A DNA stretch of 64,000 bases, taken from positions 913 to 64,912 of the forward strand of contig JACQBQ010000039.1 in the NCBI GenBank assembly GCA_016201905.1, written 5' to 3'. A program made the translations under genes and the position numbers. Source of the stretch: Candidatus Melainabacteria bacterium. GTDB lineage: Bacteria > Cyanobacteriota > Vampirovibrionia > 2-02-FULL-35-15. The stretch's first letter is position 1, and every line of letters begins with the position of its first letter. The notes below the pieces were generated by a model. The model was not told where the DNA came from. It made no database searches and saw only the letters and a list, made by a program, of their open reading frames with translations. This document shows positions 6,561 through 25,953 of the stretch, in pieces.

Positions 6561-8714
6561 TTAATCCCTGCCACTTAAAATTTTCTCTAAAGATACAATC
6601 CTGTTTTCTGCTTTAAGGAGTCTGTCTTTGTTATTTAGGAGCAAGTATAAGTTATGTGCAATCTTTAAGTCTTCTAATGAATGTGTTCTAAGTCCATAAA
6701 CATATGAAAAGTAAGCATATTTTTCACGCTCTCCCTTCACTTTATATAATTTTGTTAGTAATAATAATGTTTTTGTATCGTATGGATAGTACTTAAAAGC
6801 TTTTAAGGCATATTTTTCTATCTCTGCTAAGTTTCCGTATTTGATTAAAATGAAATCACAAAGTGAAAAAACAATTCGTAGAGAGTAAGGATCTTTTTTA
6901 TATCCCAACCTTAGTAGTTCCTCAGCTTTATCCGGCTTATCGCTAAAGTAAAAAAGTGAAGAATAAAAAGCAAGTGCGTCAGTACTTAATAAGTCCGGGT
7001 CTTCTATATTATTTTGCATTATGCTAAGTGCTTTTTGAATATCATTGTTTAAACTGAAATCAACTTTCGCAAGCAGATATTCTGCTTTTGCAAGTAGTGT
7101 TCTTGGATCCAACCCGTAATTTTTAATTATGAGTGGTGTGCTCAATTGAAATTTATCTTTTTCAATTTTTAAAAGTTCAATAGCTTTCTTTAAGTTTTTA
7201 ATAGCAAGTTTTTTATATTTTGGCTCAACTGCTTCTTCCGGGTATTCTATTAAAAGCTTATCTTGTGAAGTAAGCTCCATATATCTAAATGCTTTGTATA
7301 GAGGATTATTAGTAGCTTTAATGGCTGATTTATAAAATGTAATGTTGTCTTTCCAGTCTAAAGTTCTAAAATAGTCCCTTGTAGTATAAGTGCACATTAG
7401 AGAAAATAAAATAAAAAGTAATATCTTCGTAGGCATTTTATTAATGCTTGTATTGATTTGGAAGTTGTTAAATAAAAGGTGTGAGAACCCAAATATTAAA
7501 AGAAACAACGGTAGATATAAATATCTTTCGCTTACAAGGTTATAAGACGGTGCCAGGATCTGCGAATAAGGTACAAGTGAAAGAAGAAATGATAAAAAAG
7601 TTATAAAGAAAAAAGGAAGCTTACTTGTTGCTTTAATTAAAGATAAAAATGACAGGCATATGATAATGAATATGAAGCTAAAGCAAAAAACAGCATAAGG
7701 GTCAAATAACGATTTTCCTAATCGCAATAAAAATGTTTGATCTATTGAAAGCTTAATTGGGAAAAAAACAAGTTTAAAAAAGTGAAATAGTATTTGGGGA
7801 GAAAGCCAAAAGATCCTCTCCAAAATTAGTATTAATGAATGAGAGCCAATGTTAATTCTGGAGGGTGAAAATATGAATGCTATTACAAATAAAAAAGCAG
7901 CTATAAACAATGGTAATGTTTCGCTTAAAGTTTCTCTAAGACAGATTGGAAAAGATTTTGAGAATGAAGTAGATTTATAGTTGAAATATAACTTCATGGC
8001 AATCGTGTATATAAAAAGAATAAAAGGCAGCATAAAGTTGTATTCTGCAGTAAATAGTGCAATCATAAATGGCAAAAATAAAATTAAAAATCTTGAGAGA
8101 GTTTGTTTTATTGGTTTAAAATCAAAAGGTAATTGCTTTATATAAATATAGACTGTTAGAAAACAAAGAGTATGTCCTATAAGGGTGTTGGTATTTGAAA
8201 GCAATAGAACTGATTCAATGTTTATAGGATGTAGTGCCCATAATAACGTTAGCAGTGAAATAATAGATAACCTGGTTTTATTGTTCTGTTCATCTTGTGC
8301 TGAAGTTATAGATTCAGATTTGTTTAAATATAAAGTAGCTTTATTCATCATAAGAAAAATAAGAGCAGCATTGATTAAGTGCAATACTAAACTGCACATA
8401 TGATAAGCAACAGAATTCTTTTGAAAAATTAACTGTACTAAAAGTACAAGAAAAGTGCCAGCAGGATTACTTCTTAGGGAGACAATGTCTGAATAAAGAG
8501 TGTTAGTTGCTTCAAAATAATGATTTAATCCTAATAAAGAAATTAATTCGTACATTTCAGAAAAAGAAAAACAAACAGGGAGGAAGCTCTCATGAAACGG
8601 CATAAGTTCGTCAAAAGCTTTTAATTGAAAAAAGGTCGTAGGGAGATAAAATATAAAAACCACAAGTAGAGTAGCCAGGCAAAATATCATTATCCAGTTA
8701 GTGTTTTTTTTCAT
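6561..8714 (-). CDS. TMTC/PMT-like GT-C membrane glycosyltransferase with TPR-like C-terminus (array member 4)
   Basis: 717-aa ORF. Motifs: AFDELMPFHE, LLWALHPINIESVL, ERIFWLSPQILFHFFKLVFFPIKLSIDQ, VSERYLYL, RTLDWKD. Its start overlaps the stop of the upstream gene (ATGA, 8711..8714). Confidence 0.75.
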   Translation of the reverse strand: MKKNTNWIMIFCLATLLVVFIFYLPTTFFQLKAFDELMPFHESFLPVCFSFSEMYELISLLGLNHYFEATNTLYSDIVSLRSNPAGTFLVLLVQLIFQKNSVAYHMCSLVLHLINAALIFLMMNKATLYLNKSESITSAQDEQNNKTRLSIISLLTLLWALHPINIESVLLLSNTNTLIGHTLCFLTVYIYIKQLPFDFKPIKQTLSRFLILFLPFMIALFTAEYNFMLPFILFIYTIAMKLYFNYKSTSFSKSFPICLRETLSETLPLFIAAFLFVIAFIFSPSRINIGSHSLILILERIFWLSPQILFHFFKLVFFPIKLSIDQTFLLRLGKSLFDPYAVFCFSFIFIIICLSFLSLIKATSKLPFFFITFLSFLLSLVPYSQILAPSYNLVSERYLYLPLFLLIFGFSHLLFNNFQINTSINKMPTKILLFILFSLMCTYTTRDYFRTLDWKDNITFYKSAIKATNNPLYKAFRYMELTSQDKLLIEYPEEAVEPKYKKLAIKNLKKAIELLKIEKDKFQLSTPLIIKNYGLDPRTLLAKAEYLLAKVDFSLNNDIQKALSIMQNNIEDPDLLSTDALAFYSSLFYFSDKPDKAEELLRLGYKKDPYSLRIVFSLCDFILIKYGNLAEIEKYALKAFKYYPYDTKTLLLLTKLYKVKGEREKYAYFSYVYGLRTHSLEDLKIAHNLYLLLNNKDRLLKAENRIVSLEKILSGRD

Positions 8715-11041: not shown

Positions 11042-11050
11042 AGATAATTT

Positions 11051-13078
11051 TTAAATCTTTTGCCCCTTTAAATCAAGATGTATCTGAGCTGCTTTTTGAT
11101 AAGCTTTTGTACTGTGACTCCTTAGTCCAATCAAATATGCAAACTTGGCTTGATTTTCAAGATCATTTTTTAAGGTGTAATATCTAAAAAATTGTATAAG
11201 AGTTTGTAAATCCCCTGGATAATATTTATAAGCATACTGTAATATATCAAATGCTTTTTCAAGAGTTTTATTACTTATTAAGTAGTAATTAGAAAGAGAA
11301 TGCAGTATTGACGAACAATATAGAAACCTGTTGTGTGCATTTTCTAAGACTTGTACGGCTTTGTCGGTTTGTCCTGCTTTCACAAGAATATTTGCATACA
11401 TGGCAATTTCATTTATAAAAGCTAAATGAAGTTTATTTTTTATATATGGCTCGTAGAAAGCTAATATTTTTTTTGCATCTTCGTGGTAATAGTCTTCTTT
11501 TACAGTGGTGATTAAGTATGCAGTTTTTATAATTAATGAATCATAATCAAGCCCATAAGATTGAAGTATAGCTGGCTGGCTTGGATATTTCTTTCTTAAG
11601 ATTTTAAATTGTTTTAATGCCATTTTTAAAAATGGCAGACTTCCCTCTAAAGATTTTTTTGCAGAAGCTTTTTTGCCTTTGATTTGTAGCTGGGTCGTAT
11701 AAGTAATCAGCTTTTGTGCTTTATACAGTGGATTGTTTTCTATTTTTATTGCTGATTCTAAAAGCTTATCTCCATTGGACCAGTCTTGAATCCTGATTAT
11801 TGTTCTGCCTGAGAGGAGAAGAAGTAGGGATGAAAGTAGTATAAGTGCAGACTTCAGTTTTTTTTGATCGATTAGTGAATGAAAAACACTAAACAAAATC
11901 ACAAGGAGTATGAATGAAGGGAAATAACAATATCTGTCAGCTATTAAACAATAGTTTGGTGAAAGAACATGTAAAAAAGGAAAAAGTGCAAAATAAAAAG
12001 CATAAATTAATAGACAGATTAGTCTAATGTCCTGATTTTTTCTTGAGAATAGTAAAATAACTGGAGAAAGAATAAAAAACAAGTATAAGAGGGTACAAAG
12101 TACCGAATGCAAATCAAAAAGCGTACTTGATAGGTGTATAAGATTTGATTGGTAAGTTGACAATGTTTTGGGGAAAAGTAAAAGCTTTAAAAAAGAGAGG
12201 AATATTTGTGGTACAAGCCATAGATTCCTTTCTATAAACAGATAAGTTGTGTTAGAGCCCAAGAAACTTTTTGTAGCGGGATTGTTTCTTATGAATGAAT
12301 ATAAAACAAAAATTGCTATACCAATGAAATATGGTGATGAAAGTTTGAATGAAGTAACACCAGCTTCTCTTATTGATCCGATTTTTTTATATGTATAAGC
12401 AAAGATAAAAAAGAATATAACTAATGGAAATGTGTAGGCATGCTCTGCAAAGAACATGGAAAGTAAGACCAATGCTGGAATAAGAAAGAACTCTAGAGAT
12501 GTAACCTTGAAATCATTATCGATGATTTTAAAAGTCTCATAAAGTATAAAGCCAAAACAAAAAGTATAAGTAAAAATCATATTCCAATTTGTTGCAAGCA
12601 GTACAGCTTCAGTGTTTGCACTATGTAATGCCCATATAGCAGTAAACAGAGAAATAAGAAATAGATTAGGAAGAGAGATTTTATTTGAAAACAATTTTGT
12701 AATTTTATAGAAAATAACCCAAATGAGCGCTGTATTTATCAGATGAATTAGTAGTTGAAGTGTGTGATAGGGGAAAGGGTTTTTCTTGAAAAAATATGAC
12801 ATTAAGACTACAGATATTGAAGTTAAAATGGGCTCACTACGAACAGATAGCTGGCTTGAGAAAAAAGTGTTCATTGATTCCAGATGACAGTTAAGTACAA
12901 AATATTTAATAATTTCAAAAATTTCACTTATGGAGGAAGGTGTTGGAAATAGTGATTCATCTTTTAGTATGCGTTCATCAAAAAAGAGCCAATCTCTATT
13001 TAAAGAAGGTATATATATTAAAAGAACTAAAAGTAAAGTTCCAAAAAGAAAGAAAAGTTTGTTTTTACTTCTTTCCAT
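11051..13078 (-). CDS. TMTC/PMT-like GT-C membrane glycosyltransferase with TPR-like C-terminus (array member 6)
   Basis: 675-aa ORF. Motifs: FFDERILKDE, AIWALHSANTEAVL, ERNLWLVPQIFLSFLKLLLFPKTLSTYQ, IADRYCYF, RIQDWSN. Closest paralogue is 13082..15556. Confidence 0.75.
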   Translation of the reverse strand: MERSKNKLFFLFGTLLLVLLIYIPSLNRDWLFFDERILKDESLFPTPSSISEIFEIIKYFVLNCHLESMNTFFSSQLSVRSEPILTSISVVLMSYFFKKNPFPYHTLQLLIHLINTALIWVIFYKITKLFSNKISLPNLFLISLFTAIWALHSANTEAVLLATNWNMIFTYTFCFGFILYETFKIIDNDFKVTSLEFFLIPALVLLSMFFAEHAYTFPLVIFFFIFAYTYKKIGSIREAGVTSFKLSSPYFIGIAIFVLYSFIRNNPATKSFLGSNTTYLFIERNLWLVPQIFLSFLKLLLFPKTLSTYQSNLIHLSSTLFDLHSVLCTLLYLFFILSPVILLFSRKNQDIRLICLLIYAFYFALFPFLHVLSPNYCLIADRYCYFPSFILLVILFSVFHSLIDQKKLKSALILLSSLLLLLSGRTIIRIQDWSNGDKLLESAIKIENNPLYKAQKLITYTTQLQIKGKKASAKKSLEGSLPFLKMALKQFKILRKKYPSQPAILQSYGLDYDSLIIKTAYLITTVKEDYYHEDAKKILAFYEPYIKNKLHLAFINEIAMYANILVKAGQTDKAVQVLENAHNRFLYCSSILHSLSNYYLISNKTLEKAFDILQYAYKYYPGDLQTLIQFFRYYTLKNDLENQAKFAYLIGLRSHSTKAYQKAAQIHLDLKGQKI

Positions 13079-13081
13079 AAG

Positions 13082-15556
13082 TTATATTCCTGCTTGAAGT
13101 AACTGTTGTTTAATATTTAGGATTTGTTTCTTTTCTATTTGTGTTAAATCCTTTATTCCTTCAAGTTCATTTAAGTATTTTCTTACACTTGAAAAATCTT
13201 TTAAGTGAGTATTCACATTAATTAAGCTTGTAAGTATTCCTTTAGTGACTCGTATATCTTTATTGGTACCAAGTGCCTTGTCAGCAAGATAAGCAGCATT
13301 TAGTATTTCAAGTATCTTACTTCTTTTCCCACTTACATCTAAGTATCTGCTCATAAGTAGTAATGAAAGAGGATCGTTTGCATTTAATCTAACAAGCTTC
13401 TTTAGTGTTTTATGAGCTTCAGGTAAATTATTTAAATCAAGATATATTTGAGCTGCCTTTTGATACCCCTTTGCGTAGTGATCTCTTAAACCAAGCAGAT
13501 AGGAAAACTTGGCTTGATTTATGAGGTCATTTTTTATTTCATAGTATCTAAGTAGTTTATACAATGTAATGCCCTTGTTAGGGAAATACTTGTAAGAATA
13601 TTGTAAAAGTTCAAAAGCTTTCTCCTGATTTTTTTCGTAATCCAAATAAAAATCTGCCAGTGCATGCATTAAGTCCATGTAATATGGAAATTTTTTAAAT
13701 CCATACTCCAGCACACTTTTAGCTTTTTCAATTTGCCCATCACTTAATAGAAGTTTTGCATAATAAAGAAGCTGATTACATGAGAGTAAATCAAGATCGT
13801 TCTTTATATACTTTTCAAAAAAAGCAAGTATATCTTTAGGTGGTACCTGATAGTTATCGCTTCTAATTATTGCAATTCCAAAAGCAGCTTTTAAAAGCTG
13901 AGTATCATAATCTAAACCGTACAATTTTAAAGTTACTGGCTGTACTGGATTCCTTTTTCTCAATATTCTTAACTGCTTAATTGCTTTTTGTAGTTCTTTT
14001 ATAGCTTCTTGATAATATTCTTCCATCTTGCCCATCATTTTTTGAGACCCAAAAACGTCACCTAATACGGTGAGTTTTTTGCCTTTGTAAAGGGGGTCTT
14101 TTTCAATTTTTATGGCTGAATCATAAAATGTGTAGGCATTGCTCCAGTCCTGAATTCTTACTAGTGTTCTGACTGTCATAAGGAAAAGTAAGCATAATAG
14201 GATAGAAATAACCGCACTAGGTCTTTTCCAATTTGAAAAGGTGCACAGACTTATATATATAAGGAATAAAAGTAAAAATGATGGGAAGTAACAGTACCTG
14301 TCTGCGATTAAGCAATATGTAGGTGTAATTATTTGCAGGTAAGGGATGAGTGAGAAGAGAAAAGCATAAAATAATATACAAATAAATTTAACATTTTGAT
14401 TTTTTACTAAGATGAATAAGGTCAATGGCAAAAGAATAAAAATCAAATAAAATAGTGTACAAAATATTGAATAAGGCTCAAAAATTGAATTAGCTAGATG
14501 TACATGATTTGATTGATATGCTGAAAGTGTCTTAGGGAAAACCAGTAGTTTTATAAAATGAAAAAAGATTTGAGGTGTAAGCCACAGATTTCTTTCAAGA
14601 AAAATATAAAAGGAAGATTCCTTTATATGGTTGTCTAAAGTTTCTTTGTTACTAAACAGAGAAGCCATGGGAGAGTCTGCTTGTAAAAATGAGGTTAATA
14701 AAAATAAAATCAAGCCTATAAAATAAGGGGAAGATAGTTTAAGTGAAGTAAGAAGTGAATATTTAAACTTGTTGGATTGCCTGAGCATAAATGCAAAAAT
14801 AACAAATAAGATAATTAATGGGAATGAATAGCCATGCTCTGCAAAAGACATTTGGAGTAAAAATAAGCAGGAGATTATAAATATCCTTAATTTTGAGTTT
14901 TTAAAGTTGTTCTCTAAAATTCTGGATATTTCATAGAGCAAAAATGCAAAGCAAAATGTAAAAGTGAGAATTCCATTCCAATTTGTTGCAAGCAGTACAG
15001 CTTCAGTATTTGCGCTGTGTAATGCCCAGAGAAGCGTAAATAAAGAAATGACTGTATAAACAAGGTGATTTTGTTCATTATTATGCAGATATTTAAATAC
15101 CTGTGAGATTTTTTTTAAGATAAACCATACAAGAACAGTATTAATAAGATGAATTACAAGTAGGAATGAGTGATAAAGGAAAGGGCTTGTTTTAAAAAAG
15201 TAAGAAATAAAAACAAAAATTGACCAGGCTAATGGTACTGAGCGAATTGTCATATGGTTTGAAAATGTGCTGTTCATTGACTCAGTATGGCAATTAACTA
15301 CAAATGTGTGTATATCTTCAAAGATTTCATCAAGCCTTGTTGGTATTGGTAGAAGTGTTTCAGCATAAATAATTTTTTCATCGAAAGGTTGCCAGGGCCT
15401 AAATAGTGAAAAAGAATAAATGATAAGGACAAGTAGCATTGTGCCTAAAAGGTATAGTGAGTTTATATTTGTAAATTTTTTAATTAGTGCCTGTAATAAA
15501 GTCTCTTTGTTATTTTTTTTGAAGGTATTTGGTTTTTTAAATCTTACTTTTGCCAT
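13082..15556 (-). CDS. TMTC/PMT-like GT-C membrane glycosyltransferase with extended TPR-like C-terminus (array member 7, first gene of the operon)
   Basis: 824-aa ORF. Motifs: PFDEKIIYAE, LLWALHSANTEAVL, ERNLWLTPQIFFHFIKLLVFPKTLSAYQ, IADRYCYF, RIQDWSN. It has a longer basic N-terminus and the C-terminal extension shared with member 5. Confidence 0.75.
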   Translation of the reverse strand: MAKVRFKKPNTFKKNNKETLLQALIKKFTNINSLYLLGTMLLVLIIYSFSLFRPWQPFDEKIIYAETLLPIPTRLDEIFEDIHTFVVNCHTESMNSTFSNHMTIRSVPLAWSIFVFISYFFKTSPFLYHSFLLVIHLINTVLVWFILKKISQVFKYLHNNEQNHLVYTVISLFTLLWALHSANTEAVLLATNWNGILTFTFCFAFLLYEISRILENNFKNSKLRIFIISCLFLLQMSFAEHGYSFPLIILFVIFAFMLRQSNKFKYSLLTSLKLSSPYFIGLILFLLTSFLQADSPMASLFSNKETLDNHIKESSFYIFLERNLWLTPQIFFHFIKLLVFPKTLSAYQSNHVHLANSIFEPYSIFCTLFYLIFILLPLTLFILVKNQNVKFICILFYAFLFSLIPYLQIITPTYCLIADRYCYFPSFLLLFLIYISLCTFSNWKRPSAVISILLCLLFLMTVRTLVRIQDWSNAYTFYDSAIKIEKDPLYKGKKLTVLGDVFGSQKMMGKMEEYYQEAIKELQKAIKQLRILRKRNPVQPVTLKLYGLDYDTQLLKAAFGIAIIRSDNYQVPPKDILAFFEKYIKNDLDLLSCNQLLYYAKLLLSDGQIEKAKSVLEYGFKKFPYYMDLMHALADFYLDYEKNQEKAFELLQYSYKYFPNKGITLYKLLRYYEIKNDLINQAKFSYLLGLRDHYAKGYQKAAQIYLDLNNLPEAHKTLKKLVRLNANDPLSLLLMSRYLDVSGKRSKILEILNAAYLADKALGTNKDIRVTKGILTSLINVNTHLKDFSSVRKYLNELEGIKDLTQIEKKQILNIKQQLLQAGI

Positions 15557-15633: not shown

Positions 15634-15855
15634 ATTATTATTAGTATATGTCTTTTATTTCCGTTAGGATTTCTCCTAAAGTTTCTCCAAATAATACATA
15701 ATTCAAGGTCAGGAGAAATTTACTAAAGGTTAGAATAACTACATTAACAGCTAGAAAGATAAAAAGAATAACTCGTATTACCCTTTAATATAAACTTAGA
15801 TAGTGTTAACAGGAACTTTATGATTGAGTTGAAGTTCAAACAAACTGGTGTATTC

Positions 15856-15884
15856 TTGACTTTGGCGTGTTAGACAAAATTATT
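15856..15884 (+). promoter_or_regulatory. Weak candidate promoter for the giant surface-protein gene
   Basis: TTGACT at 15856..15861, a 17-nt spacer, then ATTATT at 15879..15884. The -10 match is poor. It lies ~105 nt upstream of the ATG at 15991. Confidence 0.2.
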
Positions 15885-15990
15885 TTGAAGTTTTTTAATT
15901 AAAATTTCAAAATAGCTTGGTCTAAAACAAAAAAGTTATTGTGTAAGTTAAAGGATGTTAACAATAATAATTAAGAAGGAGTAGAAATTA

Positions 15991-18900
15991 ATGAAATTGA
16001 TTTCATCGAAAAAGACTAAGCGTAATGTTGCGCTCTTCTTTGTTCTCGCATTTATGCTTTCAAACCTTTTATCGCTTTTTGGGCCAAGTGCTCAAGCTGC
16101 GGTATCAGTTACAGCCCCATCAACTGGTACATGTTTTCAACACAATGGTACAGTTGCAAACGGTGCTCTAGTCACGGTTTATAATATTGGTACAATTCAG
16201 CTTTCATTGACAGCATCAGAAATTTCACCTGGTGTTGACGCAGCAGGCACAACTGCAGCAACAACAGCTGCTGTTTCTAACGCTGTTACAGCAGGTCACA
16301 TTGATACAGCTAGTGACATCATTGGAAATATTTTTACAATAACTCCTCCAACAGGTACAAACTTTGTAATAGTGCCTGGCTTCCAAGACACTACTGCTAG
16401 CCGTACAAACATACTTTTAAATGCAAATGCACAAATATCAAATGCATTATCTACTGACTCTACAAACGCAGCAGTAGATAGTACGCTTGATATAGATGTA
16501 GGTGTAGTAACAGCTGGTACAGTAGGACTTGGCAGAGCAGTAGTAGCAATTGCAAGAGACGCAGATGCAGGTTCAGCTACTTCTAACTTTGGTTCAGAAA
16601 CATATCCAAAATCTGGTACTGGAAGCAACACCGTAACAATTACTGTTAATGGCTTAGGTATTGCAATTCCTCCATCTGGAGATACAGCACTAAGTGGTAC
16701 ATTAACAGCAACACTTGATTCTACAGTTCCTTCTGGTACTGGAGCATCTGGTGGTAGTGGTACTCCTGCAGTAGCAAGTGCTATTTCAGGTTTATCCCAA
16801 ACAATTAACTTATGTACAGTAACCTCACCAGCCGGTAAGATTGAAGCAGTGCTAGATATTGATAATGACTCATCAGAGTTATATGATAAATCTGGTACTA
16901 CCAGCCAAAACCTGGTTGCTTTAGGTCAAATAGGAAGCAATACAACGATTGCAATATTTGATACAAATACAGTAGCAGCAGGTGTAAGCAGTTCTACCTT
17001 AGTTGATACAGAGGCCATTATTATTAAAGGTATTGGTACTGGAACAACAGGTGTTACAGCTACAGACCAAGCTATTGCAACTGGAGCCTTAACTAGTGAT
17101 ATTGATACTGATGCTGAGTTTCCATCAGCTACAGGGTTAGATATAACATCATCCTTGTTTGCAAATAACTCAGGTGCAGCAGGATCAGCTCCAATTACAA
17201 TTAACTTTGAAGATGACAACTCTTTAGCAGTTACTACCTTACAAGCAGTTGATATTGTTATTACTAACACAACTGCAGCAGGTGGAACTGGATTACCAAC
17301 GATTGCTGGATTTAGTGGTGCTCAAACTTCTAGATTTGGTTTCTTGGGAGCATTAAGAGCAGCACTTCACGAAGGTGGTAACGCTACCAGTTTGGCAAAT
17401 ACCGTATCTGGTACAGCCTGGGGTGTTGCGTCAATTATAGGCGGACCTACAGGCAGTATAGCAAATCAAGAGTCAACAAACCCGACTACTGGTGCACCAG
17501 GTTTAGCTACTTCTACTGCTAATGGAACTGGCGCTACTACTCTTGAACCTTTCCAGCCTTCATTTGTAGACTTAAGACTTTTCTGTTCAGCAAGCACAAA
17601 CCCAGTAGCAGGTTGGTTTGCTATCTTGAACAGCGGAGTTGCAGCAAATACTATTGGAACTACAGCAGGTGGTACTAAACAGTTAATTAAGAGATCACAA
17701 GCTGGACAAAAGTTTGCAGGACCAAATGCAACCTTATTCTTCCAAACATTGACAAACATTTCTGGGACACAAGCATCATCGTCACTTACAGCTGATGCAA
17801 CAAGACAATTTATAGTTGGAGAAAAGATAGTAGCAGTTGGACTTGATACAGTTAACGGTAGTAATGCACTGTTATATGCATCTTGTGCAAACAATGCCTT
17901 GACTATATACCCAATTCAAAATGGTTTTGACGCAGCTAGAGATGTTATTGCAATTACTCCAAAACTGCAAGTTACAAATGTTAGCAGTACATTCTCACAG
18001 GATGTAAATGTCATTGCAAACGTTTCTGGTAATAACTTATCAGGTACTACTTCATTAACACTGGCAACATTAGTTGGTGTACCAGCTACTGGCGGAAACT
18101 CTAGCTTAGCTTCAGCACAAGGTGTAGCAGTATCAGAAAACAGTAGTTTAGGTATTGATTGTTCAAGCGGAGGTCAGTCAAGTGTAGTTCTAAGTGGTGT
18201 AGCCACTGGTTCAGTTACTACAGCTGCAACTGCTGCTTGTACAGGTGGTGTAATTGCACCTCCATCTACCTTCTTTACTGGCGGAGCTCCTAATTCAGTT
18301 TCTGGAACTACAGTTATTGATGGTGCACCAGTTGTACAAGGTGAAGCAAGAGGTATTCTAGTCACTGAAAGCAGTGTAACTGGATTCAACCAATTGTTAA
18401 ATCAAGTTGGTGGTGGTGCTACTGGTACTGTATTTGAAGTTCAATTACCTACAGGTTGTGATGTTATTGATGATAGAGACGATAACAATACAGCAGTATC
18501 AAATTCAGCAAGTACAGGTGGTAACGATGTTACAAGGTTCTCCGTAACTCAAACTGGTGGTATTACAGCATCAGTAGCAGCCGGTGGATCAGGTGATGCA
18601 GCACTCACAAATGTGAATGTTGTAGCATCAGCATCAGGTACAACACCAGCTAGAGCATACTTTAGAATTAGTGCAGGAAATGGTTCAGCAGCTGATGCTG
18701 CAGTAACAGATAGTATCTTGTTCAGGATTGATTCACAAGATTTATTCTGTCCAACTACAGTAACTGGTGACCTTTCAGGAAAAATCCTTGCACAAAACAA
18801 AGTATCTGGTCCAACACTTACATCAAATCTTGGTACAGCCATGTTTGGTACAGCAACACAAGCATTAAGCTTTGCATTTGCTGATGATGTAGCTACTTCA

Positions 18901-20145
18901 GTAAAAGGTGAAGTTTCTACCAATACTAATCTTGGTCCAACACCAAGGTTTACAGGTACTGGTGGTGGCGTAACAAATTCACATCCGTTTAAGATTGTTG
19001 AATTGGATAACAGATCCTTCCCAATCGGTGGCAGGGTTTCTAAACGAAACTTAGATCCTGATAACACAACAACTGGTACAGTTATAACCAAAGGACAAAT
19101 TTGGATTATTCCTGCATCAGGAGCTGCATTTAGTGCTGCACCAGCAACGGCTGATGTCTCATTCTCAGACAACTCATTAGTTGTTGATGGAGCACCAGTA
19201 CTTGTAGCTAGTGCTACTCAGGATGCAAATGCACCATTAGGTACAATTCTTATTGGTATCAAGAAGAATACAGCTTCAGGTGCAACCGATCCAGCAACGA
19301 CGAAAACAACCGTTACAGTTAAGAACCTCAAGTTAGCAGCAGCTACAAGCAGTACAACTGATCTAGTTGCTTCAGTTGAGTTCTATTCACAAGATGCAGG
19401 TGTAGTAGTTAACACACCAGGTGTTGCGGCAGGAAATAGTTCGTCAACTCCGACACTATTTACTCCATTTGCACCAGGTTCAACAAAAGCTTCAACACAG
19501 CTTAATGTTGCAACTACTTCTGCAGTTCAGTTAGGAGCTGGTTCGTTAGCAAATAGCTTGATAACATCCAGGCTTACAACTGAAGGTGCACCTCAACTGA
19601 ATCCATTTGCGAAAGTTATTGCAACTCAAGCAAATGCAGATTCTTCAAAAATCACAGTTAGTGCAGTGGCTCCTACTGCAACAAGCAGTTCAGGCAGCTC
19701 TGCTCTAGCAACAGAAAACATTGTTACAGTTACTGGTGTTGCTGGTGCTGTAGATGGTGGTGCTGAAGTAGTTATTACTTCAGGACCTAATGCATCGACA
19801 GTATACGGGTCAACCACAGTAATTGCATCAACTGATGGTTCATTTACTGCAATGTTAAGAGGCGATTGTTCACCTCCTAACACTAGTCTTACTCTTATTG
19901 TTACTGAACAATTAAGTGGTAATAAATCAACGTCAGTTACCAAGACAGCACTATGTAATGGTGCAACTGGTGAAACTGCAGATAGCGTATTTGCTGCAAT
20001 AGCTGGATCAGATGGTCAAGCAACAGTAGCAAAAGTACTGTCGTACGTTTCAGCTCAAGGAGGTCTATCAGCAATAGTTACAGCAGGTGGTGCAAAACTA
20101 CAAGGCGTAATTAAAGCTGCTAAGGCTGCGCTCGGACTTAGCTAA
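15991..20145 (+). CDS. Very large secreted Thr/Ala/Ser/Gly/Val-rich surface protein (S-layer/adhesin-like); candidate glycoprotein
   Basis: 1384-aa ORF with AGGAG at 15977..15981, 9 nt before the ATG. N-terminal signal peptide MKLISSKKTKRNVALFFVLAFMLSNLLSLFGPSAQA/AVS. The sequence is visibly dominated by T, A, S, G, V and N with few charged or aromatic residues. The C-terminal part has a beta-rich Ig-like pattern (VTVTGVAGAVDGGAEVVITSG...STDGSFTAML). A strong terminator follows. Confidence 0.9.
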   Translation: MKLISSKKTKRNVALFFVLAFMLSNLLSLFGPSAQAAVSVTAPSTGTCFQHNGTVANGALVTVYNIGTIQLSLTASEISPGVDAAGTTAATTAAVSNAVTAGHIDTASDIIGNIFTITPPTGTNFVIVPGFQDTTASRTNILLNANAQISNALSTDSTNAAVDSTLDIDVGVVTAGTVGLGRAVVAIARDADAGSATSNFGSETYPKSGTGSNTVTITVNGLGIAIPPSGDTALSGTLTATLDSTVPSGTGASGGSGTPAVASAISGLSQTINLCTVTSPAGKIEAVLDIDNDSSELYDKSGTTSQNLVALGQIGSNTTIAIFDTNTVAAGVSSSTLVDTEAIIIKGIGTGTTGVTATDQAIATGALTSDIDTDAEFPSATGLDITSSLFANNSGAAGSAPITINFEDDNSLAVTTLQAVDIVITNTTAAGGTGLPTIAGFSGAQTSRFGFLGALRAALHEGGNATSLANTVSGTAWGVASIIGGPTGSIANQESTNPTTGAPGLATSTANGTGATTLEPFQPSFVDLRLFCSASTNPVAGWFAILNSGVAANTIGTTAGGTKQLIKRSQAGQKFAGPNATLFFQTLTNISGTQASSSLTADATRQFIVGEKIVAVGLDTVNGSNALLYASCANNALTIYPIQNGFDAARDVIAITPKLQVTNVSSTFSQDVNVIANVSGNNLSGTTSLTLATLVGVPATGGNSSLASAQGVAVSENSSLGIDCSSGGQSSVVLSGVATGSVTTAATAACTGGVIAPPSTFFTGGAPNSVSGTTVIDGAPVVQGEARGILVTESSVTGFNQLLNQVGGGATGTVFEVQLPTGCDVIDDRDDNNTAVSNSASTGGNDVTRFSVTQTGGITASVAAGGSGDAALTNVNVVASASGTTPARAYFRISAGNGSAADAAVTDSILFRIDSQDLFCPTTVTGDLSGKILAQNKVSGPTLTSNLGTAMFGTATQALSFAFADDVATSVKGEVSTNTNLGPTPRFTGTGGGVTNSHPFKIVELDNRSFPIGGRVSKRNLDPDNTTTGTVITKGQIWIIPASGAAFSAAPATADVSFSDNSLVVDGAPVLVASATQDANAPLGTILIGIKKNTASGATDPATTKTTVTVKNLKLAAATSSTTDLVASVEFYSQDAGVVVNTPGVAAGNSSSTPTLFTPFAPGSTKASTQLNVATTSAVQLGAGSLANSLITSRLTTEGAPQLNPFAKVIATQANADSSKITVSAVAPTATSSSGSSALATENIVTVTGVAGAVDGGAEVVITSGPNASTVYGSTTVIASTDGSFTAMLRGDCSPPNTSLTLIVTEQLSGNKSTSVTKTALCNGATGETADSVFAAIAGSDGQATVAKVLSYVSAQGGLSAIVTAGGAKLQGVIKAAKAALGLS

Positions 20146-20164: not shown

Positions 20165-20194
20165 TGAGGCCCCTGTAACCCAGGGGCCTCTTTT
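20165..20194 (+). terminator. Rho-independent terminator after the giant surface-protein gene
   Basis: GAGGCCCCTG (20165..20174), loop TAACC, CAGGGGCCTC (20180..20189), then TTTT. Confidence 0.85.
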
Positions 20195-20308: not shown

Positions 20309-21709
20309 ATGGTTAATAGAGCAACTTTGGGTGTGTTAATAATGTTGCTTTTGTTTGGTCTTTTTGGATTTAATTGGCCAGCTGCAAAAGCACAAGTAGC
20401 AACACCAGCACAAGCAACGATAACTGTAAGTGGTGTACCAACAGGTACAAAAGGACTCGCAGTTGAAGTTACTGTTGATACAGCAGTAGTAACTTTAGAT
20501 TCATCAGCATCAAGCAGTGTTAGCGGTGCACTAGTGGTTACAGGAAGTATGTCAGAAGGCGTTGGAGTGATTAGTACAAGTAGTGACTTGCCAGCAAGTT
20601 TTACAATTACAGCACCATTTAAAGGTGTAACTGCTGGAACGTCAATGGTATCAGTTGGAAAAGTTTTAGATATGATTGGCGGAACTGCAATAGCAGGAGC
20701 ATCAGCAATGGTTGATGTTAGCTCAGTCTCAGTAGCTTCTTCTAGTACTAGCACATCATCTTCCTCCAGTAGTTCAACCTCTGGTGGTGCTGGAAAGCTA
20801 AGTACAGATACAATTACAGTTACAATTAATGGTGCACCAGTAGATGCTACGAATGCATTAAATGTAACGCTAGCATTTAGTGATGCAGGAGTTGTTTCAC
20901 TTGATACAGGTGTTACCTTTATGGGTACTGGTGCGACTCAGTTACTAACTGATGTTGATACTACTAAGAATGTTTTAACGGCAGTATGGAATAACAACAC
21001 TACTGACGGTAAAGCAGTTCTTACAGCTATGCTGAAAGCAGGCTCAATGGCTGGTACAACAATGATTAGCGTAAGCAAAGTAGAAGCAGCTGGTGGTACT
21101 GATATTACAAGCAATGTAGTTGCTACTGTAGATCCAAGCTCTGTAACGAATAGTGCAGGAACTTCATTAGTAGGAACTTTTGGATTAGTTGCTCCTGACT
21201 CAGTAACAGGTCCAGGTAAAGTAGCAGTAGCATTTACTGCTGATGGTACACCGTCCTCATTCTCAGCGACTCTAAACGGAAGTAAGGTTGAGTTCTTTGA
21301 TATGAGTTCAGTTGGTGTAGCGATTGTTAATATTCCATCAAGTGGTGACCTTACTCTAATGTTGGCAGTTACAGCTTCAGGAATGACTACAAGTGTAGAT
21401 CTTGGAACTATCTCTGTTGACCAAGGCAGTGGTAAGAAGCCATCAGTGAACTCAGCAAGCGCAAGCAATAAGAGTTCAGGTACAAACTTAATAGTTACTG
21501 GCAAAAAACTAAAGGATGCCACTATTGAGATAGTACCGACTGATAGAACGGCAACATCAACCACAGCTAAGGGAGCAAACATAAAAGCAACCTATGATTC
21601 TAGTGAATGTATACCAAGTGGTAGTTTCGTAAATGTTTCTACTGCAGGTGGTACAGCAGCTAAGAAGATCAAGGCACATGGTAGCTGTTCGAATAAGCTA
21701 GTTGAATAA
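20309..21709 (+). CDS. Secreted Ser/Thr/Ala/Gly-rich protein with two internal repeat modules and a poly-Ser linker
   Basis: The ORF track starts at GTG 20294. I prefer ATG 20309, which has GGAGG at 20296..20300. Signal peptide MVNRATLGVLIMLLLFGLFGFNWPAAKA/QV. Two modules end in AGTSMVSVGKV and AGTTMISVSKV, separated by SSSTSTSSSSSSSTSGG. The C-terminal part looks like an IPT/Ig-like beta domain. A terminator follows. Confidence 0.85.
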   Translation: MVNRATLGVLIMLLLFGLFGFNWPAAKAQVATPAQATITVSGVPTGTKGLAVEVTVDTAVVTLDSSASSSVSGALVVTGSMSEGVGVISTSSDLPASFTITAPFKGVTAGTSMVSVGKVLDMIGGTAIAGASAMVDVSSVSVASSSTSTSSSSSSSTSGGAGKLSTDTITVTINGAPVDATNALNVTLAFSDAGVVSLDTGVTFMGTGATQLLTDVDTTKNVLTAVWNNNTTDGKAVLTAMLKAGSMAGTTMISVSKVEAAGGTDITSNVVATVDPSSVTNSAGTSLVGTFGLVAPDSVTGPGKVAVAFTADGTPSSFSATLNGSKVEFFDMSSVGVAIVNIPSSGDLTLMLAVTASGMTTSVDLGTISVDQGSGKKPSVNSASASNKSSGTNLIVTGKKLKDATIEIVPTDRTATSTTAKGANIKATYDSSECIPSGSFVNVSTAGGTAAKKIKAHGSCSNKLVE

Positions 21710-21762
21710 CGTTAAGGCAATAGGTATCTAGTTATCTATTGTACGCTTTACAAAATATAAAA

Positions 21763-21792
21763 GAGGCACAAGTACTTGTGCCTCTTTTTTTT
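21763..21792 (+). terminator. Rho-independent terminator
   Basis: GAGGCACAAG (21763..21772), loop TA, CTTGTGCCTC (21775..21784), followed by T8. Confidence 0.85.
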
Positions 21793-21883: not shown

Positions 21884-22771
21884 ATGAAAAAGTTAATTAT
21901 TTTAGGAGTCCTATTGGCTAATCTAGGTTTTCTTTCTGCCTTAGCAGGAGATAAGCCAGCTAAACCAAAGATTGATATACATCCTACTGAAGGATATTCC
22001 CTTCAAATATCAATTAATGATATTCCCAAAAATCAGCAAACTCTTTTTATTCCAATTAAAATAGACACAATGGTTCTGGATTTTGATCAAGTTGTACTTG
22101 AAGGACTATCAACTCAAAATATACTTGCTGTTGTTTCAAGCTCAAAAGATAAGGTCGGTCCTGGTATTGGATTACTTAAGTTTGATGAAAATGGACTTCC
22201 TCCTTCTTTGTCATTAAAGGTTCTTTTAAAACGTACAGGTGATGGACAAACCTCAGTTTCCTTATTGAAGGTTGCTGATGAACCTGCTTTGCTTTCAAAA
22301 GGAGCAGTACTAAGTGATGGAGTTACAGTCAGCATTAAGGAAAATCCTGAACTAGAAATCACTGAAAAGGTTGAAAAAAACAGGCCAAGGCTCTTTATAA
22401 CTGAAAATAAGATAACGCTAGATGTGAAAAGAACTGGACAAAAAGAAGAGACAGTCTTTATACCATTAATATTTGATCAAAGCTTGGTTGATTTAGATGA
22501 AACTTTTGGATATGCCATTATTGGTCCTGGCATATCTGCTAAAGCTTTTAGCTCAAGCTCACTCCATGAAGGTGGACCTGGGGTTGAAATACTCTTGAGT
22601 TCTGAGGCAGATAAGGATTTTAGTATTGATGTTGACTTGATCCCGAAAAAAGTAGGTAAAGCAAAGCTAGCAGTAGCTTTCCCACTGAAAGGTCACATTG
22701 CAATAGTGAAAGGTCCTATAGTTGATATAAATCCTACGGTGATTTCTGTAGCTAGTACAGAAAAGAAGTAA
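21884..22771 (+). CDS. Secreted protein of unknown function with two internal repeat modules (cohesin-like pattern, tentative)
   Basis: 295-aa ORF with GAGGAG upstream. Signal peptide MKKLIILGVLLANLGFLSALAG. Two modules begin QTLFIPIKIDTMVLDFDQVVLEG and ETVFIPLIFDQSLVDLDETFGY. Confidence 0.8.
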   Translation: MKKLIILGVLLANLGFLSALAGDKPAKPKIDIHPTEGYSLQISINDIPKNQQTLFIPIKIDTMVLDFDQVVLEGLSTQNILAVVSSSKDKVGPGIGLLKFDENGLPPSLSLKVLLKRTGDGQTSVSLLKVADEPALLSKGAVLSDGVTVSIKENPELEITEKVEKNRPRLFITENKITLDVKRTGQKEETVFIPLIFDQSLVDLDETFGYAIIGPGISAKAFSSSSLHEGGPGVEILLSSEADKDFSIDVDLIPKKVGKAKLAVAFPLKGHIAIVKGPIVDINPTVISVASTEKK

Positions 22772-22801: not shown

Positions 22802-22900
22802 ATGAAACAGAAGCAGCAAAGAGGTTTAAAGCGTGCAATGAAAGTCTTAAAGAGAAAAAGAAAGAAAAGAATGCTTAATAAAATTGAAAAGATTAAATGA
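22802..22900 (+). CDS. 32-aa extremely basic micro-ORF, translationally coupled to the aminotransferase gene
   Basis: AAGGAG at ~22791..22796, ATG at 22802. Translates to MKQKQQRGLKRAMKVLKRKRKKRMLNKIEKIK. Its TGA stop (22898..22900) overlaps the ATG of the next gene (22897) as ATGA. It is below the ORF-track size cut-off. Confidence 0.4.
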   Translation: MKQKQQRGLKRAMKVLKRKRKKRMLNKIEKIK

Positions 22901-24042
22901 CAAAGCTAATAAACCTAAAACAAAACCAGAAAAAAATCCCAATTATTGATCTTGTCTGCCACTATAGATCTATTCAAAATGAAATCGAGAAAGTGACTTT
23001 TGATGTGCTCTCATCAGGACATTATATTCTGGGGAAAAATGTAGAAGCATTTGAAGAAGAACTATCAAAATACTTAGGATGTAAGAATGTCGTTTCCTGT
23101 GCAAATGGAACAGATGCAATTGTTCTGGCTTTAAAGGCCCTGGATATAAAGCCAGGAGATGAAATTATAACTGTATCGCACAGTTTTTTTGCTACAAGTG
23201 AGGCTATTGCTTTAGTAGGCGGAATTCCTGTTTTTGCAGATATAAGAGAAGATGATTTTAATATTGATCCTGAAAAAATCGAAGCTTTAATTACAAAAAA
23301 AACAAAAGCAATTATACCTGTCCATTTATATGGCCAGCCATGTGAAATCAGCTCTGTGATTGAGATTGCAAAGAAGTATGGATTATATGTGATTGAAGAC
23401 TGTGCTCAATCTATAGGAGCTAAGTTTAATGGGAAAAACGTGGGTACTTTTGGTGATATTAGTACTTTGAGTTTTTTCCCGACAAAAAACCTAGGAGCCT
23501 GTGGTGATGGAGGAGCTGTAATTACTAATGATTATAAACTTGCAACAAAAATAAAACAGCTTAGGATTCATGGCTCATCCAAGCGCTATGTGCATGATTA
23601 TATTGGCATGAATAGTAGGCTTGATGAGTTGCAAGCTGCCATATTAAGAATTAAATTGCCTTACTTGGATAAATGGAATCATGAACGCTATAAAGCAGCT
23701 AAATATTATGATGAACTTTTTAAAGATGTAAAGCAAGTGACTACTCCAATTGTTAAATCTAATTCCCAGCACGTTTTCCACCAATATACAATCAGATTAA
23801 ATCAAAGAGACTTCTTATGTGAAAAACTTAGAGAAAAAAACATTGAAACAATAATTTATTATCCAGTACCCATACATTTACAAAGTGTGTTTAGTTATTT
23901 AGGTCGCCAAAAAGGCTCATTACCAGTGACTGAAAAGATATGCAATGAGATTTTATCTTTGCCAATATACCCGGAAATCACAAAAGACATTCAAGAATAT
24001 ATAGTAGAAAATATTAAAAGTATTCTTGCTGTTGGTCCTTGA
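22897..24042 (+). CDS. DegT/DnrJ/EryC1/StrS-family PLP-dependent sugar aminotransferase (PglE/WecE-like)
   Basis: 381 aa. Family hallmark SFFPTKNLGACGDGGAVITND (PLP-lysine region), plus HLYGQPCE and NSRLDELQAAIL. Confidence 0.9.
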   Translation: MTKLINLKQNQKKIPIIDLVCHYRSIQNEIEKVTFDVLSSGHYILGKNVEAFEEELSKYLGCKNVVSCANGTDAIVLALKALDIKPGDEIITVSHSFFATSEAIALVGGIPVFADIREDDFNIDPEKIEALITKKTKAIIPVHLYGQPCEISSVIEIAKKYGLYVIEDCAQSIGAKFNGKNVGTFGDISTLSFFPTKNLGACGDGGAVITNDYKLATKIKQLRIHGSSKRYVHDYIGMNSRLDELQAAILRIKLPYLDKWNHERYKAAKYYDELFKDVKQVTTPIVKSNSQHVFHQYTIRLNQRDFLCEKLREKNIETIIYYPVPIHLQSVFSYLGRQKGSLPVTEKICNEILSLPIYPEITKDIQEYIVENIKSILAVGP

Positions 24043-25953
24043 TTAAACACCTGCAGGAACTTTGCTTTCTAATTTGTTTAGCTTATGTGTTTCAGTTGAA
24101 AGTTTGTTTTTAAATGTTTGAATATCGCAAGTCGGTAGCAGGTTATATAGTTCATCAATACTGGCTTTCACAAGATTGCCTGGAGTATCTTTGGACTTAA
24201 TCACTAGTATTTTTTTGTGTTTTGTGATGTCTGTGCCTTCATAATATCCCACAAGTTCTTCTTTGAGTTTTTCGCCGGGTCTTAAACCTGTAACTTTTAC
24301 TTTGATTTGATCGAAATCGTAACCAGACAGTTTAATAAAGTCTTTTGCTAATTGATAAATGCTGATTTCATTACCCATATCTAAAACCATTATTTCAGAT
24401 GATTTCCCGGCAGCGCTTGCTTTAATTACAAGTTGTGCGGCTTCTAGCAATGTCATAAAAAATCTATATGCGTTCTTGTCTGTAATAGTAATTTGCAAGT
24501 TGTTTTTGAGTTGTCTTTCCCATATAGGAATTACACTGCCACGACTTCCTATTACGTTTCCGAATCTGACTGAAATGTATTTGGTCTTAGGATATTCTTT
24601 AGCGCATGCATTAACAATAAGTTCAGCAAGTCTTTTTGTGAATCCTAAAACATTTACTGGATTTACTGCTTTATCTGTTGAAATATTTACAAATGTTTCA
24701 GTATTTAATAATCCTGCAATCTCTGCAATATTTTTTGTTCCAATAGCATTATTTTCAAATGCTTCTTTAGGGTGGTCTTCCATAAGTGGTACATGTTTAT
24801 GAGCTGCGGCATGGAAAATGACTTCTGGAGCAGCTTTGTGGATGTGATAGTGAAGCTGTTTGTAATTCCTGATGTCACAAATTATCGGAGTAAAGTTTGA
24901 TGTTAATGCACTAAGATCTTGTGAGAGTTGAAAAATGCTATTTTCACCTCTTCCTAAAATATAAATGTGCTTAGGTGAAAAGTTTTTAACTAATTGTTTG
25001 GTTAGCTCGCTTCCAATTGAGCCGCCAGCTCCTGTAATTAAAATCGTTTTATTGTTTATAAAATTTGCAACTTCTGGAATAGACATATCAACAGGTTCTC
25101 TGCCAAGTAAATCTTCTAAGCTTACTTTTCTGATTTGTTCAATTGTTACTTGACCACCAGCTAGTTGGTCTACCCCGGGAATTATTTTTGTTTCCAGATT
25201 TGTTTTCTGACATAGTTCAACTATTTCTCTCAACTGTTTTGGTGGCATTGAAGGTATTGCAATTATAATTTGTTCAATATTTTGTTCTTTAACTATTTTG
25301 TCTAAAGAATTAATTTGTCCAGTTACTCTTACACTGTTCGATAGCTTAATGTTTTGTTTCCTTAAATCATCGTCTAAGGCACAAATAACTTCAATGTCTA
25401 GTTCAGGATGCTGGGCAATTTTTCTTACTAGCTCCTGAGCTGCTTGTCCTGCACCTATTAAGAGTGTTCGTGTTTTTGTTCTTTGTATTTTAGACTGTTG
25501 TCTTTTTTTAATTGCTCTGTTTGCTATCTGCCACTTTCTTGTAAGCCTTGCAAAGGATAGAAAAATAAGACTTAGAGATGAATCCATTATGATTACACCA
25601 AAAGGAATTGCAAAAATATAATTTTCTGAAGTGAAACCAATTGCTCTTGGTATGGCTAAAAGTAAAGAAGAAAAGACGATTGGTTTTGTAAGTTCTAAAA
25701 TCTCGTTAATTTCTGTGTAGCGCCACATCTTGCTGTATATTTGAAAAACAAATAAAAAAATGGTTCTTAATGCAACAACAAAAGGTAAAACAGTTGGTAA
25801 CTGTGATTTCCAAAACCAGCTTTGAACCCCAGGTGATAAGTGATGTTCTAGTCTTAGTTTGTATGAAACTATTAGAGAAAGAGAAAATAAGGAGATATCA
25901 ATTACTATTCTTAAAATCTTTTTTATGGAATAAACCCACTCTTTGATTGCCAC
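24043..25953 (-). CDS. CapD/PglF/WbpM-like membrane-anchored nucleotide-sugar 4,6-dehydratase (polysaccharide biosynthesis protein)
   Basis: 636 aa. N-terminal TM helices, then two Rossmann motifs (LLIGAGQAAQEL and ILITGAGGSIGSEL), and STDKAVNPVNVLGFTKRLAE. Convergent with the aminotransferase gene with no gap. Confidence 0.88.
   Translation of the reverse strand: MAIKEWVYSIKKILRIVIDISLFSLSLIVSYKLRLEHHLSPGVQSWFWKSQLPTVLPFVVALRTIFLFVFQIYSKMWRYTEINEILELTKPIVFSSLLLAIPRAIGFTSENYIFAIPFGVIIMDSSLSLIFLSFARLTRKWQIANRAIKKRQQSKIQRTKTRTLLIGAGQAAQELVRKIAQHPELDIEVICALDDDLRKQNIKLSNSVRVTGQINSLDKIVKEQNIEQIIIAIPSMPPKQLREIVELCQKTNLETKIIPGVDQLAGGQVTIEQIRKVSLEDLLGREPVDMSIPEVANFINNKTILITGAGGSIGSELTKQLVKNFSPKHIYILGRGENSIFQLSQDLSALTSNFTPIICDIRNYKQLHYHIHKAAPEVIFHAAAHKHVPLMEDHPKEAFENNAIGTKNIAEIAGLLNTETFVNISTDKAVNPVNVLGFTKRLAELIVNACAKEYPKTKYISVRFGNVIGSRGSVIPIWERQLKNNLQITITDKNAYRFFMTLLEAAQLVIKASAAGKSSEIMVLDMGNEISIYQLAKDFIKLSGYDFDQIKVKVTGLRPGEKLKEELVGYYEGTDITKHKKILVIKSKDTPGNLVKASIDELYNLLPTCDIQTFKNKLSTETHKLNKLESKVPAGV

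Follow-up and report, generated by a model that had tools for sequence, protein, structure and literature searches.

A giant predicted Ig-like protein as a candidate surface-coat protein of a groundwater Melainabacteria lineage, encoded in a conserved gene cluster

No non-photosynthetic group is closer to the cyanobacteria than the Melainabacteria, nearly all of which are uncultured. We analyzed a 64,000-nt stretch of a Candidatus Melainabacteria genome (assembly GCA_016201905.1, contig JACQBQ010000039.1, positions 913 to 64,912; hereafter the window) and focused on one of its open reading frames (ORFs), which encodes a 1384-residue protein that we call the giant. Our tentative but quite possible reading is that the giant is the major surface-coat protein, of the surface-layer (S-layer) type, of one groundwater lineage of Melainabacteria (Vampirovibrionia), and that it may be glycosylated by the products of neighboring genes. 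We favored a coat of this type because the protein appears to be exported, carries disulfide-type cysteines, combines immunoglobulin-like (Ig-like) domains with a helical module, bears an expression signature, and has a fixed length and even conservation. An ORF of 4.2 kb in DNA of ~30% G+C, with 39 full-length homologues and conserved synteny, is not a product of chance.

The giant starts with a Sec-type signal peptide of n/h/c organization, which has a hydrophobic core at residues 13–31 and a c-region PSAQA followed by AV, and which is kept in the homologues. An earlier note on this DNA, written from the sequence alone, had proposed cleavage after AQA, and the organization of the peptide agrees with this; cleavage after AQA36 would leave a mature protein of 132 kDa with an isoelectric point (pI) of 4.4. 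The note had also described a Thr/Ala/Ser/Gly-rich protein unlike the others encoded in the window, and so it proved. Residues A (13.9%), T (13.9%), S (11.1%), G (11.1%), and V (8.5%) together make up 58% of the giant, and K (2.4%), R (1.6%), and E (1.7%) only 5.7%; the 33 other tabulated ORFs are Lys/Ile/Leu-rich, and the giant's composition is matched only by the next gene downstream. Neither an LPXTG motif nor a lipobox was found, as the note had said. Its label of 'low-complexity' did not hold. The composition is biased, but self-BLAST detected no internal repeats, no tandem repeats were found in the DNA, homopolymers reach at most three residues, and the longest Ser/Thr run is five; the homologues, their invariant cysteines, and confident structure models all describe a conserved folded protein.

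We folded the giant with AlphaFold as two overlapping halves (residues 30–720 and 690–1384), supplying the family alignment. The N half was modeled with a mean predicted local distance difference test (pLDDT) of 77 and a predicted template modeling score (pTM) of 0.83, and is made of strands nearly throughout. The C half (mean pLDDT 82.5, pTM 0.80) is mostly strands, with helices at its end, and some regions of both models are of lower confidence. The high pTM of both halves suggests that the domains are packed in a fixed arrangement and do not form a floppy stalk. Overall, the models show ~1290 residues of Ig-like beta-sandwich followed by a four-helix module of ~55 residues, and we conclude with good confidence that the giant is a folded multi-domain protein, predicted to be a chain of Ig-like beta-sandwiches with a C-terminal four-helix module. 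The invariant cysteines C48 and C275, which border the N-terminal domain, may pair in a disulfide.

Sequence searches assigned the giant to no Pfam or NCBIfam family (E ≤ 0.01) and gave no PHROG match and no PDB match (E ≤ 1). Searches by fold, using Foldseek against the PDB, returned only generic tandem Ig-like surface proteins, none with a TM-score above 0.43, at 7–12% identity. The central region and the N half gave generic Ig-like matches only, and the C half matched PrgB in its Ig-like domains (E = 5e-10) and antigen I/II in its C-terminal domains; ClfB, pilins, and integrin legs were further Foldseek matches. Three S-layer proteins were also among the C-half matches: that of H. volcanii (7ptp, in situ; E = 1e-7), Sap (6qx4), and SbsC (5ftx). 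No catalytic or carbohydrate-binding family was recovered by sequence or fold search. The earlier note had suggested an S-layer or adhesin-type protein; the giant does look secreted, and its fold matches are surface proteins only, if at a generic level, but they do not choose between an S-layer and an adhesin. Phage-tail-like homologues, which the note had set against its own assignment, were found neither in PHROGs nor in the viral structure library. In the latter, the Foldseek matches were generic and Ig-like; one 164-residue target reached a TM-score of 0.35, and no other exceeded 0.25. We rejected a phage-tail origin because the matches to viral structures are only generic and because the genomic context is housekeeping.

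The helical module at the C-terminus is specific to the family. In the C-half model its helices span residues 641–652, 657–666, 670–676, and 678–691 (model numbering) with pLDDT values of 85–93, and the module is kept in 39/39 homologues, with the consensus EIAGSDG.ATI.EVLSYV...GGL.AIV.AGG.KL.GVIKAAK.ALGLS. Residues G1357, G1358, L1359, G1366, G1367, L1370, I1374, L1381, and G1382 are invariant in a 26-sequence alignment. The giant thus ends in an amphipathic helical module, with GLS as its last residues, and not in a sortase-type signal. The loop within the module reads I-A-G-S-D-G-Q-A-T-V-A-K in the window and has lost EF-hand positions 1, 3, and 12, with no EF-hand match; a canonical D-x-D-x-DG loop (for example, IDADSDGTFTVAEV) survives in a few homologues only. 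We therefore did not retain an EF-hand or dockerin identity for the module, whose loop is degenerate and whose Pfam EF-hand matches (E = 0.07–0.2) fall below cut-offs. The note had asked whether the C-terminal segment recurs in other secreted proteins as a sorting tag. In 1.84 billion representative proteins the segment occurs only in members of the giant family, fragments of them, and half-size paralogues described below, which rules out a general sorting tag and identifies it as a family-specific terminal module. In the half-size paralogues the tail is conserved only slightly more than the remainder (41–51% vs 37–40%). We infer that the module may serve in anchoring or oligomerization.

A search of 5.8 billion clustered proteins yielded 39 full-length homologues of the giant at 50–66% identity, all of them unnamed and without a Pfam domain; the few with a source name come from Candidatus Melainabacteria metagenome-assembled genomes. 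Family members are 1310–1388 aa long, are evenly conserved from end to end, and share ten invariant cysteines. A profile built from giant residues 190–1384 matched 25 proteins in the 1.84 billion representatives (E ≤ 0.001), and those that we traced came from Melainabacteria assemblies or from short contigs labeled otherwise. When one genome per species was scanned (185,579 species), the giant gene appeared in ~10 assemblies, mostly of groundwater Melainabacteria, one of these being labeled Candidatus Caenarcanales. No relatives of the giant family were detectable outside Melainabacteria. Giant-bearing contigs under other phylum labels are L010 and L023 (CAZRTB01, 'uncultured Gammaproteobacteria'), L018 ('Blastocatellia'), and the one encoding P0167 (Gammaproteobacteria); L010 has the entire giant cluster, and these labels are probably binning or labeling errors. 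The giant evolves faster than its housekeeping neighbors (51–61% vs 73–94% identity).

The gene also carries signs of strong expression. The earlier note's claim that it has its own strong ribosome-binding site and terminator was borne out. A AAGGAGTAGA-ATT-ATG block around the start codon is (nearly) invariant in an alignment of the 250 nt upstream of the giant gene from eight loci, and a hairpin beginning ~20 nt past the stop codon has a predicted ΔG of –21.8 kcal/mol (z = –4.4), with none of 200 shuffled sequences as stable. A simple terminator scan had overlooked this hairpin because its T-run consists of four Ts and the scan needs five. The gene has a G+C content of 41%, compared with ~30% around it, and the excess is confined to codon positions 1 and 2; G+C at third positions (GC3) is 17%, below the 23–26% of neighboring genes. 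Synonymous codons are more skewed than in the neighbors, with GGT, for example, accounting for 64% of Gly codons versus 37%. This combination indicates a native gene with a high-expression signature. Horizontal transfer as the source of the high G+C content was ruled out by the position of the excess, the low GC3, and the conserved synteny.

The same eight-locus alignment revealed a conserved non-coding block of ~70 nt, which has many invariant positions and is set in otherwise diverged intergenic DNA. The window has a single copy of the inverted repeat at the core of this block, GGAACTTTAT-N11-AGTTCA, and 100 shuffles gave none. In 13 related loci, one copy lies 5' of the gene for the full-length giant; the repeat was not found at the loci of the second full-length paralogue or of the half-size paralogues. 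A conserved GTGTATTC stretch in the block is partly complementary to the invariant Shine-Dalgarno (SD) region, with no covariation backing a pairing. A structured RNA was considered and set aside: Rfam gave no match, and the predicted stems are invariant without covariation. The block may be a promoter/operator or a leader element. Together with the codon bias and the invariant SD site, it points to high and regulated expression of the giant, as far as can be read from sequence.

Table 1. Positions of the giant gene, its predicted domains and signals, and neighboring features in the window.
Feature	Position	Strand	Details
Membrane + TPR paralogue array	176–15556	–	Seven complete tandem paralogues, 675–824 aa; polytopic membrane domain and C-terminal TPR domain; 30–50% mutual identity
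Conserved non-coding block	15803–15873	+	~70 nt; 118–188 nt before giant start codon; candidate promoter/operator or 5'-leader
Inverted repeat GGAACTTTAT-N11-AGTTCA	15812–15838	+	Core of the upstream block
Shine-Dalgarno site AAGAAGGAG	15973–15981	+	9 nt between end of site and ATG at 15991
Giant ORF	15991–20145	+	1384 aa, ATG start
Sec-type signal peptide	15991–16098	+	Residues 1–36; basic n-region K7 K8 K10 R11; predicted cleavage after AQA36
N-terminal beta-rich domain (predicted)	16099–16830	+	Residues ~37–280; invariant C48 and C275 as borders; pLDDT mostly 80–95
Central beta-sandwich region (predicted)	16831–18090	+	Residues ~281–700; invariant C532, C632; borders approximate
C-half beta-sandwich region (predicted)	18091–19968	+	Residues ~701–1326; invariant C724, C750, C823, C920, C1293, C1322
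C-terminal helical module (predicted)	19969–20145 incl. stop	+	Residues ~1327–1384, ending ...GVIKAAKAALGLS; four short helices, degenerate EF-hand-like loop
Intrinsic-terminator-like hairpin	20166–20190, with TTTT to 20194	+	10-bp stem, 5-nt loop, 8 G-C pairs
p471, secreted partner	20309–21709	+	466 aa; signal peptide, Thr/Ser/Ala/Gly/Val-rich, three beta-rich segments, poly-Ser linker
Bidirectional hairpin	21759–21788		13 bp; separates p471 and p295 genes
p295, secreted partner	21884–22771	+	Signal peptide, no cysteine, two similar beta-rich halves
DegT/PglE-like aminotransferase	22897–24042	+	Pfam DegT_DnrJ_EryC1 6.6e-128
PglF/WbpM-like membrane 4,6-dehydratase	24043–25953	–	Pfam Polysacc_synt_2 1.2e-100

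The giant gene belongs to a conserved cluster. Most of one gene order is shared by all eight syntenic loci: a minus-strand array of paralogues encoding membrane proteins with tetratricopeptide repeats (TPRs), a non-coding gap of ~430–500 nt, the giant, a p471-type gene, a p295-type gene, and amino-sugar genes. The array lies in the same place everywhere and varies in size from three to seven or more paralogues. Two secreted partners accompany the giant in each of the seven loci tested. The p471 gene follows directly 3' of it (48–66% identity, ~465–482 aa), and p295 is kept at 44–62% identity and ~293–325 aa. Searches with p471 gave no Pfam, NCBIfam, PHROG, or PDB match, and those with p295 no family or PDB match. 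By eye, the C-terminal domain of p471 reads like an IPT/TIG fold, for which a PDB profile search gave no match, and the cohesin-like or IPT-like modules that we suspected by eye in both partners likewise found nothing in PDB profile searches. Of the amino-sugar genes, the dehydratase lies downstream of the giant in 8/8 loci and the aminotransferase in all but 2/8; rpmG comes after the dehydratase in the four loci in which this was checked. The adjacency of the amino-sugar genes suggests a link to the giant.

Proteins of the array share a basic N-terminus, a first transmembrane segment (TM1), a loop of ~80 residues with an invariant D59-E60, and then 8–12 hydrophobic segments, and many charged intramembrane residues are invariant among them. 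They have ~100 relatives, of which the few with names are from Melainabacteria. Their TPR domain is well supported, with TPR_14/TPR_19 Pfam matches in 49 of 57 members (best 2.5e-15) and matches to TPR proteins of the PDB down to 1.4e-10. The membrane domain gave no Pfam match in any of the 57 members (E ≤ 10), whether to PMT, PMT_2, DUF1736, DUF2723, or another family; in PDB profile searches the best match was TMEM260 (9rql) at a non-significant E = 1.8, which disappeared with a membrane-only profile, and hhalign against E. coli ArnT gave a probability of 0.15%. The note had proposed looking for GT-C/TPR genes beside homologues of the giant, and an array of polytopic membrane proteins with TPR domains is indeed there in 8/8 syntenic loci. 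Its GT-C identity was not recovered by any sequence method: single-sequence Pfam (E ≤ 10), 57-member Pfam, three PDB profile searches, and hhalign against ArnT were all negative. From their architecture, the array paralogues are candidate GT-C-type protein glycosyltransferases. A 958-aa ORF at 60057–62933 (–) encodes a Phe/Tyr/Asn/Leu-rich protein with no Pfam match; as a relative of the TPR paralogues it was ruled out (hhalign probability 0.9%).

A more ambitious proposal is that the whole cluster is a dedicated O-glycosylation system, in which an expanding set of three to seven or more GT-C-like enzymes, each with its own TPR 'reader', would modify different Ig-like domains of the giant in the periplasm. 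Such a system would be a prokaryotic counterpart of domain-specific TMTC/TMEM260 O-mannosylation and, given how far its membrane domain has diverged, would define a new glycosyltransferase family; we regard it as improbable. The note had drawn O-glycosylation from the density of Thr and Ser; the giant has no mucin-like Ser/Thr clusters, so O-glycosylation is here inferred from the gene context. N-glycosylation of the PglB type was discarded, as the giant has one D/E-x-N-x-S/T site, 3 of its 23 N-x-S/T sequons are conserved, and no STT3/PglB was found in the five flanking genes scanned.

Several paralogues and a sister family place the giant in a wider context. Half-size paralogues of ~690 aa (P0148–P0150) consist of a signal peptide, the C-terminal half from residue ~700 to the end, and the same tail. 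Most giant-carrying genomes have one, at an unrelated housekeeping locus (L019–L025, match ~10001–12050), which in the one annotated locus (L019) is flanked by 2-oxoacid:ferredoxin oxidoreductase genes on one side and glmS on the other. In a sister lineage, the same oxidoreductase genes are found no more than 10 kb from a full-size homologue, and these shared neighbors hint that this is the ancestral position. A second copy of full length (P0035; 1310 aa, 52% identity; L003/L016 10001–13933) is present in one genome (GCA_023250155.1). It lies 18 nt after an AIR-synthase-related (AIRS-domain) gene, has ppx on its other side, and is not preceded by the upstream element; in the window nothing separates these two flanking genes, which directly adjoin (40641–40652). 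The giant's N-terminal domain occurs doubled in tandem in separate secreted proteins (P0041–P0043; 765–799 aa, 47–53% identity). In these, the tandem domains are followed by linkers rich in Ser and in Cys and then by a basic C-terminus of unrelated sequence, and the P0043 gene (L007 2693–4990) lies among small genes for MerR-type and helix-turn-helix-type regulators, unlike the context of the giant.

The sister family was reached via weak profile matches and comprises proteins of 1490–1617 aa, with 26 further members that are 32–52% identical to the query, P0166. A single cluster member bears the label Candidatus Melainabacteria, and the others have no source name. Identity to the giant is ~28% across 217 residues, and the C-terminus differs. 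At its locus (L026–L028, 10001 to ~14800) the gene order is conserved: ruvA, the sister-family gene, three flagellin genes, enolase, and a CMP-sugar cytidylyltransferase-like gene; thus two gene sets for abundant surface structures lie side by side.

How would the giant function as a coat protein? After Sec export it would be cleaved at AQA36, and would fold and form its disulfides in the periplasm. There the neighboring polytopic TPR proteins might O-glycosylate it in a GT-C-like manner, using lipid-linked sugars, with their TPR domains recognizing its beta-sandwich domains. The protein would then cross the outer membrane, its large beta-region would form the exposed layer, and it would be anchored or oligomerized by the helical module at its C-terminus, possibly assisted by p471 and p295. 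Two features of S-layer proteins were found in the giant, namely an export signal, which is of the Sec type and kept in the homologues, and a bipartite build in the AlphaFold models. S-layer proteins follow a bipartite logic, pairing a small alpha-rich anchor with a large segment that forms the lattice and consists mostly of Ig-like folds (PMC8559796).

A number of observations weigh against a surface coat. Searches of Pfam, NCBIfam, and the PDB found no S-layer anchoring domain (SLH, CWB2, secondary cell wall polymer (SCWP)-binding, or an RsaA-type lipopolysaccharide (LPS)-binding N-terminus). S-layer proteins usually contain few cysteines, and their sequences usually change faster than that of the giant. 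A Sec signal reaches only the periplasm of a diderm, and no route of export across the outer membrane was identified for the giant. The likeness found by Foldseek is generic and suits adhesins equally. Finally, no TPR paralogue, p471, or p295 lies within 10 kb of the sister-family gene; the glycosylation link is therefore not universal and is conserved in this lineage only.

The strongest alternative to a surface coat, which we nonetheless consider unlikely, is a non-lattice surface adhesin or fibril, a rigid Ig-like rod that would project from the outer membrane and bind particles, biofilm matrix, prey, or a host. The best Foldseek matches of the giant are Gram-positive adhesins and pilins (PrgB, antigen I/II, ClfB, and pilins), and the reuse of its N-terminal domain, doubled, in P0041–P0043 recalls modular adhesins. 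The only cultured relative in the literature on Melainabacteria, Vampirovibrio, is predatory (PMC4451040). However, the giant has no repeated stalk modules and its family shows no repeat-driven change in length, its conservation is even with no hypervariable tip, and no LPXTG, autotransporter barrel, or type I secretion system (T1SS)/RTX signature was found in it. The strong-expression signature and the high pTM suit a structural coat better.

Less likely still, the giant could be a periplasmic or outer-membrane-associated scaffold that is kept within the envelope, for example spanning from peptidoglycan to the outer membrane. A Sec signal alone, with no recognized signal for export across the outer membrane, is what such a protein would have, the ten invariant cysteines fit oxidative folding in the periplasm, and the neighboring membrane + TPR proteins would work on the periplasmic side. 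All fold matches, on the other hand, are extracellular surface proteins, and exposed surface proteins typically have such a composition and an acidic pI. The lack of a further export signal says little, as substrates of type II secretion, too, have just a Sec signal. A substrate-binding or enzymatic exoprotein released to the medium, such as a polysaccharide-binding protein or one with unrecognized catalytic domains, we rate as very unlikely: ~1300 residues without a family assignment and some model regions of lower confidence leave room for it, but neither sequence nor fold searches point to a catalytic or carbohydrate-binding family, the predicted secondary structure consists nearly throughout of beta-sandwich strands, and the conserved pairing with two further secreted proteins and the expression bias fit a structural role better.

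In two earlier genomic studies (PMC3787301, PMC4451040), LPS genes and SLH-domain proteins were the sole basis for inferring the envelope of Melainabacteria, and SLH-domain proteins the sole basis for inferring an S-layer. With the giant, one groundwater lineage now has a specific candidate for its dominant surface protein, with the sister family in other lineages, and a conserved cluster has been defined that comprises the giant, its two partners, the membrane + TPR array, and the amino-sugar genes. We found no paper describing the giant family or the sister family; the family is undescribed so far, and its kind, the large Ig-like surface protein, is familiar. If the giant is merely another lineage-specific surface protein, the value of this work lies mainly in annotation, with ~100 'hypothetical' proteins gaining a provisional role.

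Among known systems, the large acidic S-layer proteins of cyanobacteria, Synechocystis Sll1951 and Synechococcus SwmA, which are reportedly glycosylated and leave the cell by type I secretion, belong to the giant's wider phylum. They have no N-terminal signal peptide and carry RTX repeats and a C-terminal T1SS signal, whereas the giant has a Sec signal, no RTX/HemolysinCabind match, and no detected homology to them. A closer resemblance in build is to Ig-like S-layer proteins, namely csg of H. volcanii (7ptp), SbsC of Geobacillus (5ftx), and Sap of B. anthracis (6qx4). The giant is likewise large, acidic, Thr/Ser/Ala/Gly-rich, and secreted, and shares with them a chain of predicted Ig-like domains with a small helical terminal module, strong expression signals, and adjoining sugar-modifying genes. 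Foldseek matched these three with E = 1e-7 to 6e-3, but with TM-scores of 0.08–0.16 and no sequence homology. Unlike them, the giant has no SLH, SCWP-binding, or archaeosortase-type anchor, and it has ten conserved cysteines and a diderm host. Its best Foldseek matches, PrgB of Enterococcus (8beg) and the streptococcal antigen I/II proteins (3qe5, 3opu), reflect a likeness in tandem Ig-like domains (E = 5e-10 to 1e-6, Foldseek probability 1.0), although the TM-scores do not exceed 0.43 and identity is 7–11%. The giant differs from these in its host, a diderm, and in having no LPXTG motif and no Pfam match to a DEv-IgG or isopeptide domain.

For the array paralogues the relevant comparison is with the eukaryotic GT-C + TPR protein O-mannosyltransferases TMEM260 and TMTC1–4, whose layout they share: TM1, a long loop with acidic residues, ~11 transmembrane helices, and a non-cytoplasmic TPR domain. 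Unlike that group, they show no significant sequence or profile similarity to it. In TMEM260, what the TPR domain recognizes is one strand of a domain of Ig-like (IPT) type (bioRxiv 10.64898/2026.03.17.711096; PMC11292533). Beside the array paralogues the presumed substrate, the giant, is itself a predicted Ig-like chain; should these paralogues prove to be glycosyltransferases, they would represent a new GT-C-like family and a tractable bacterial model of TPR-guided glycosylation of Ig-like domains.

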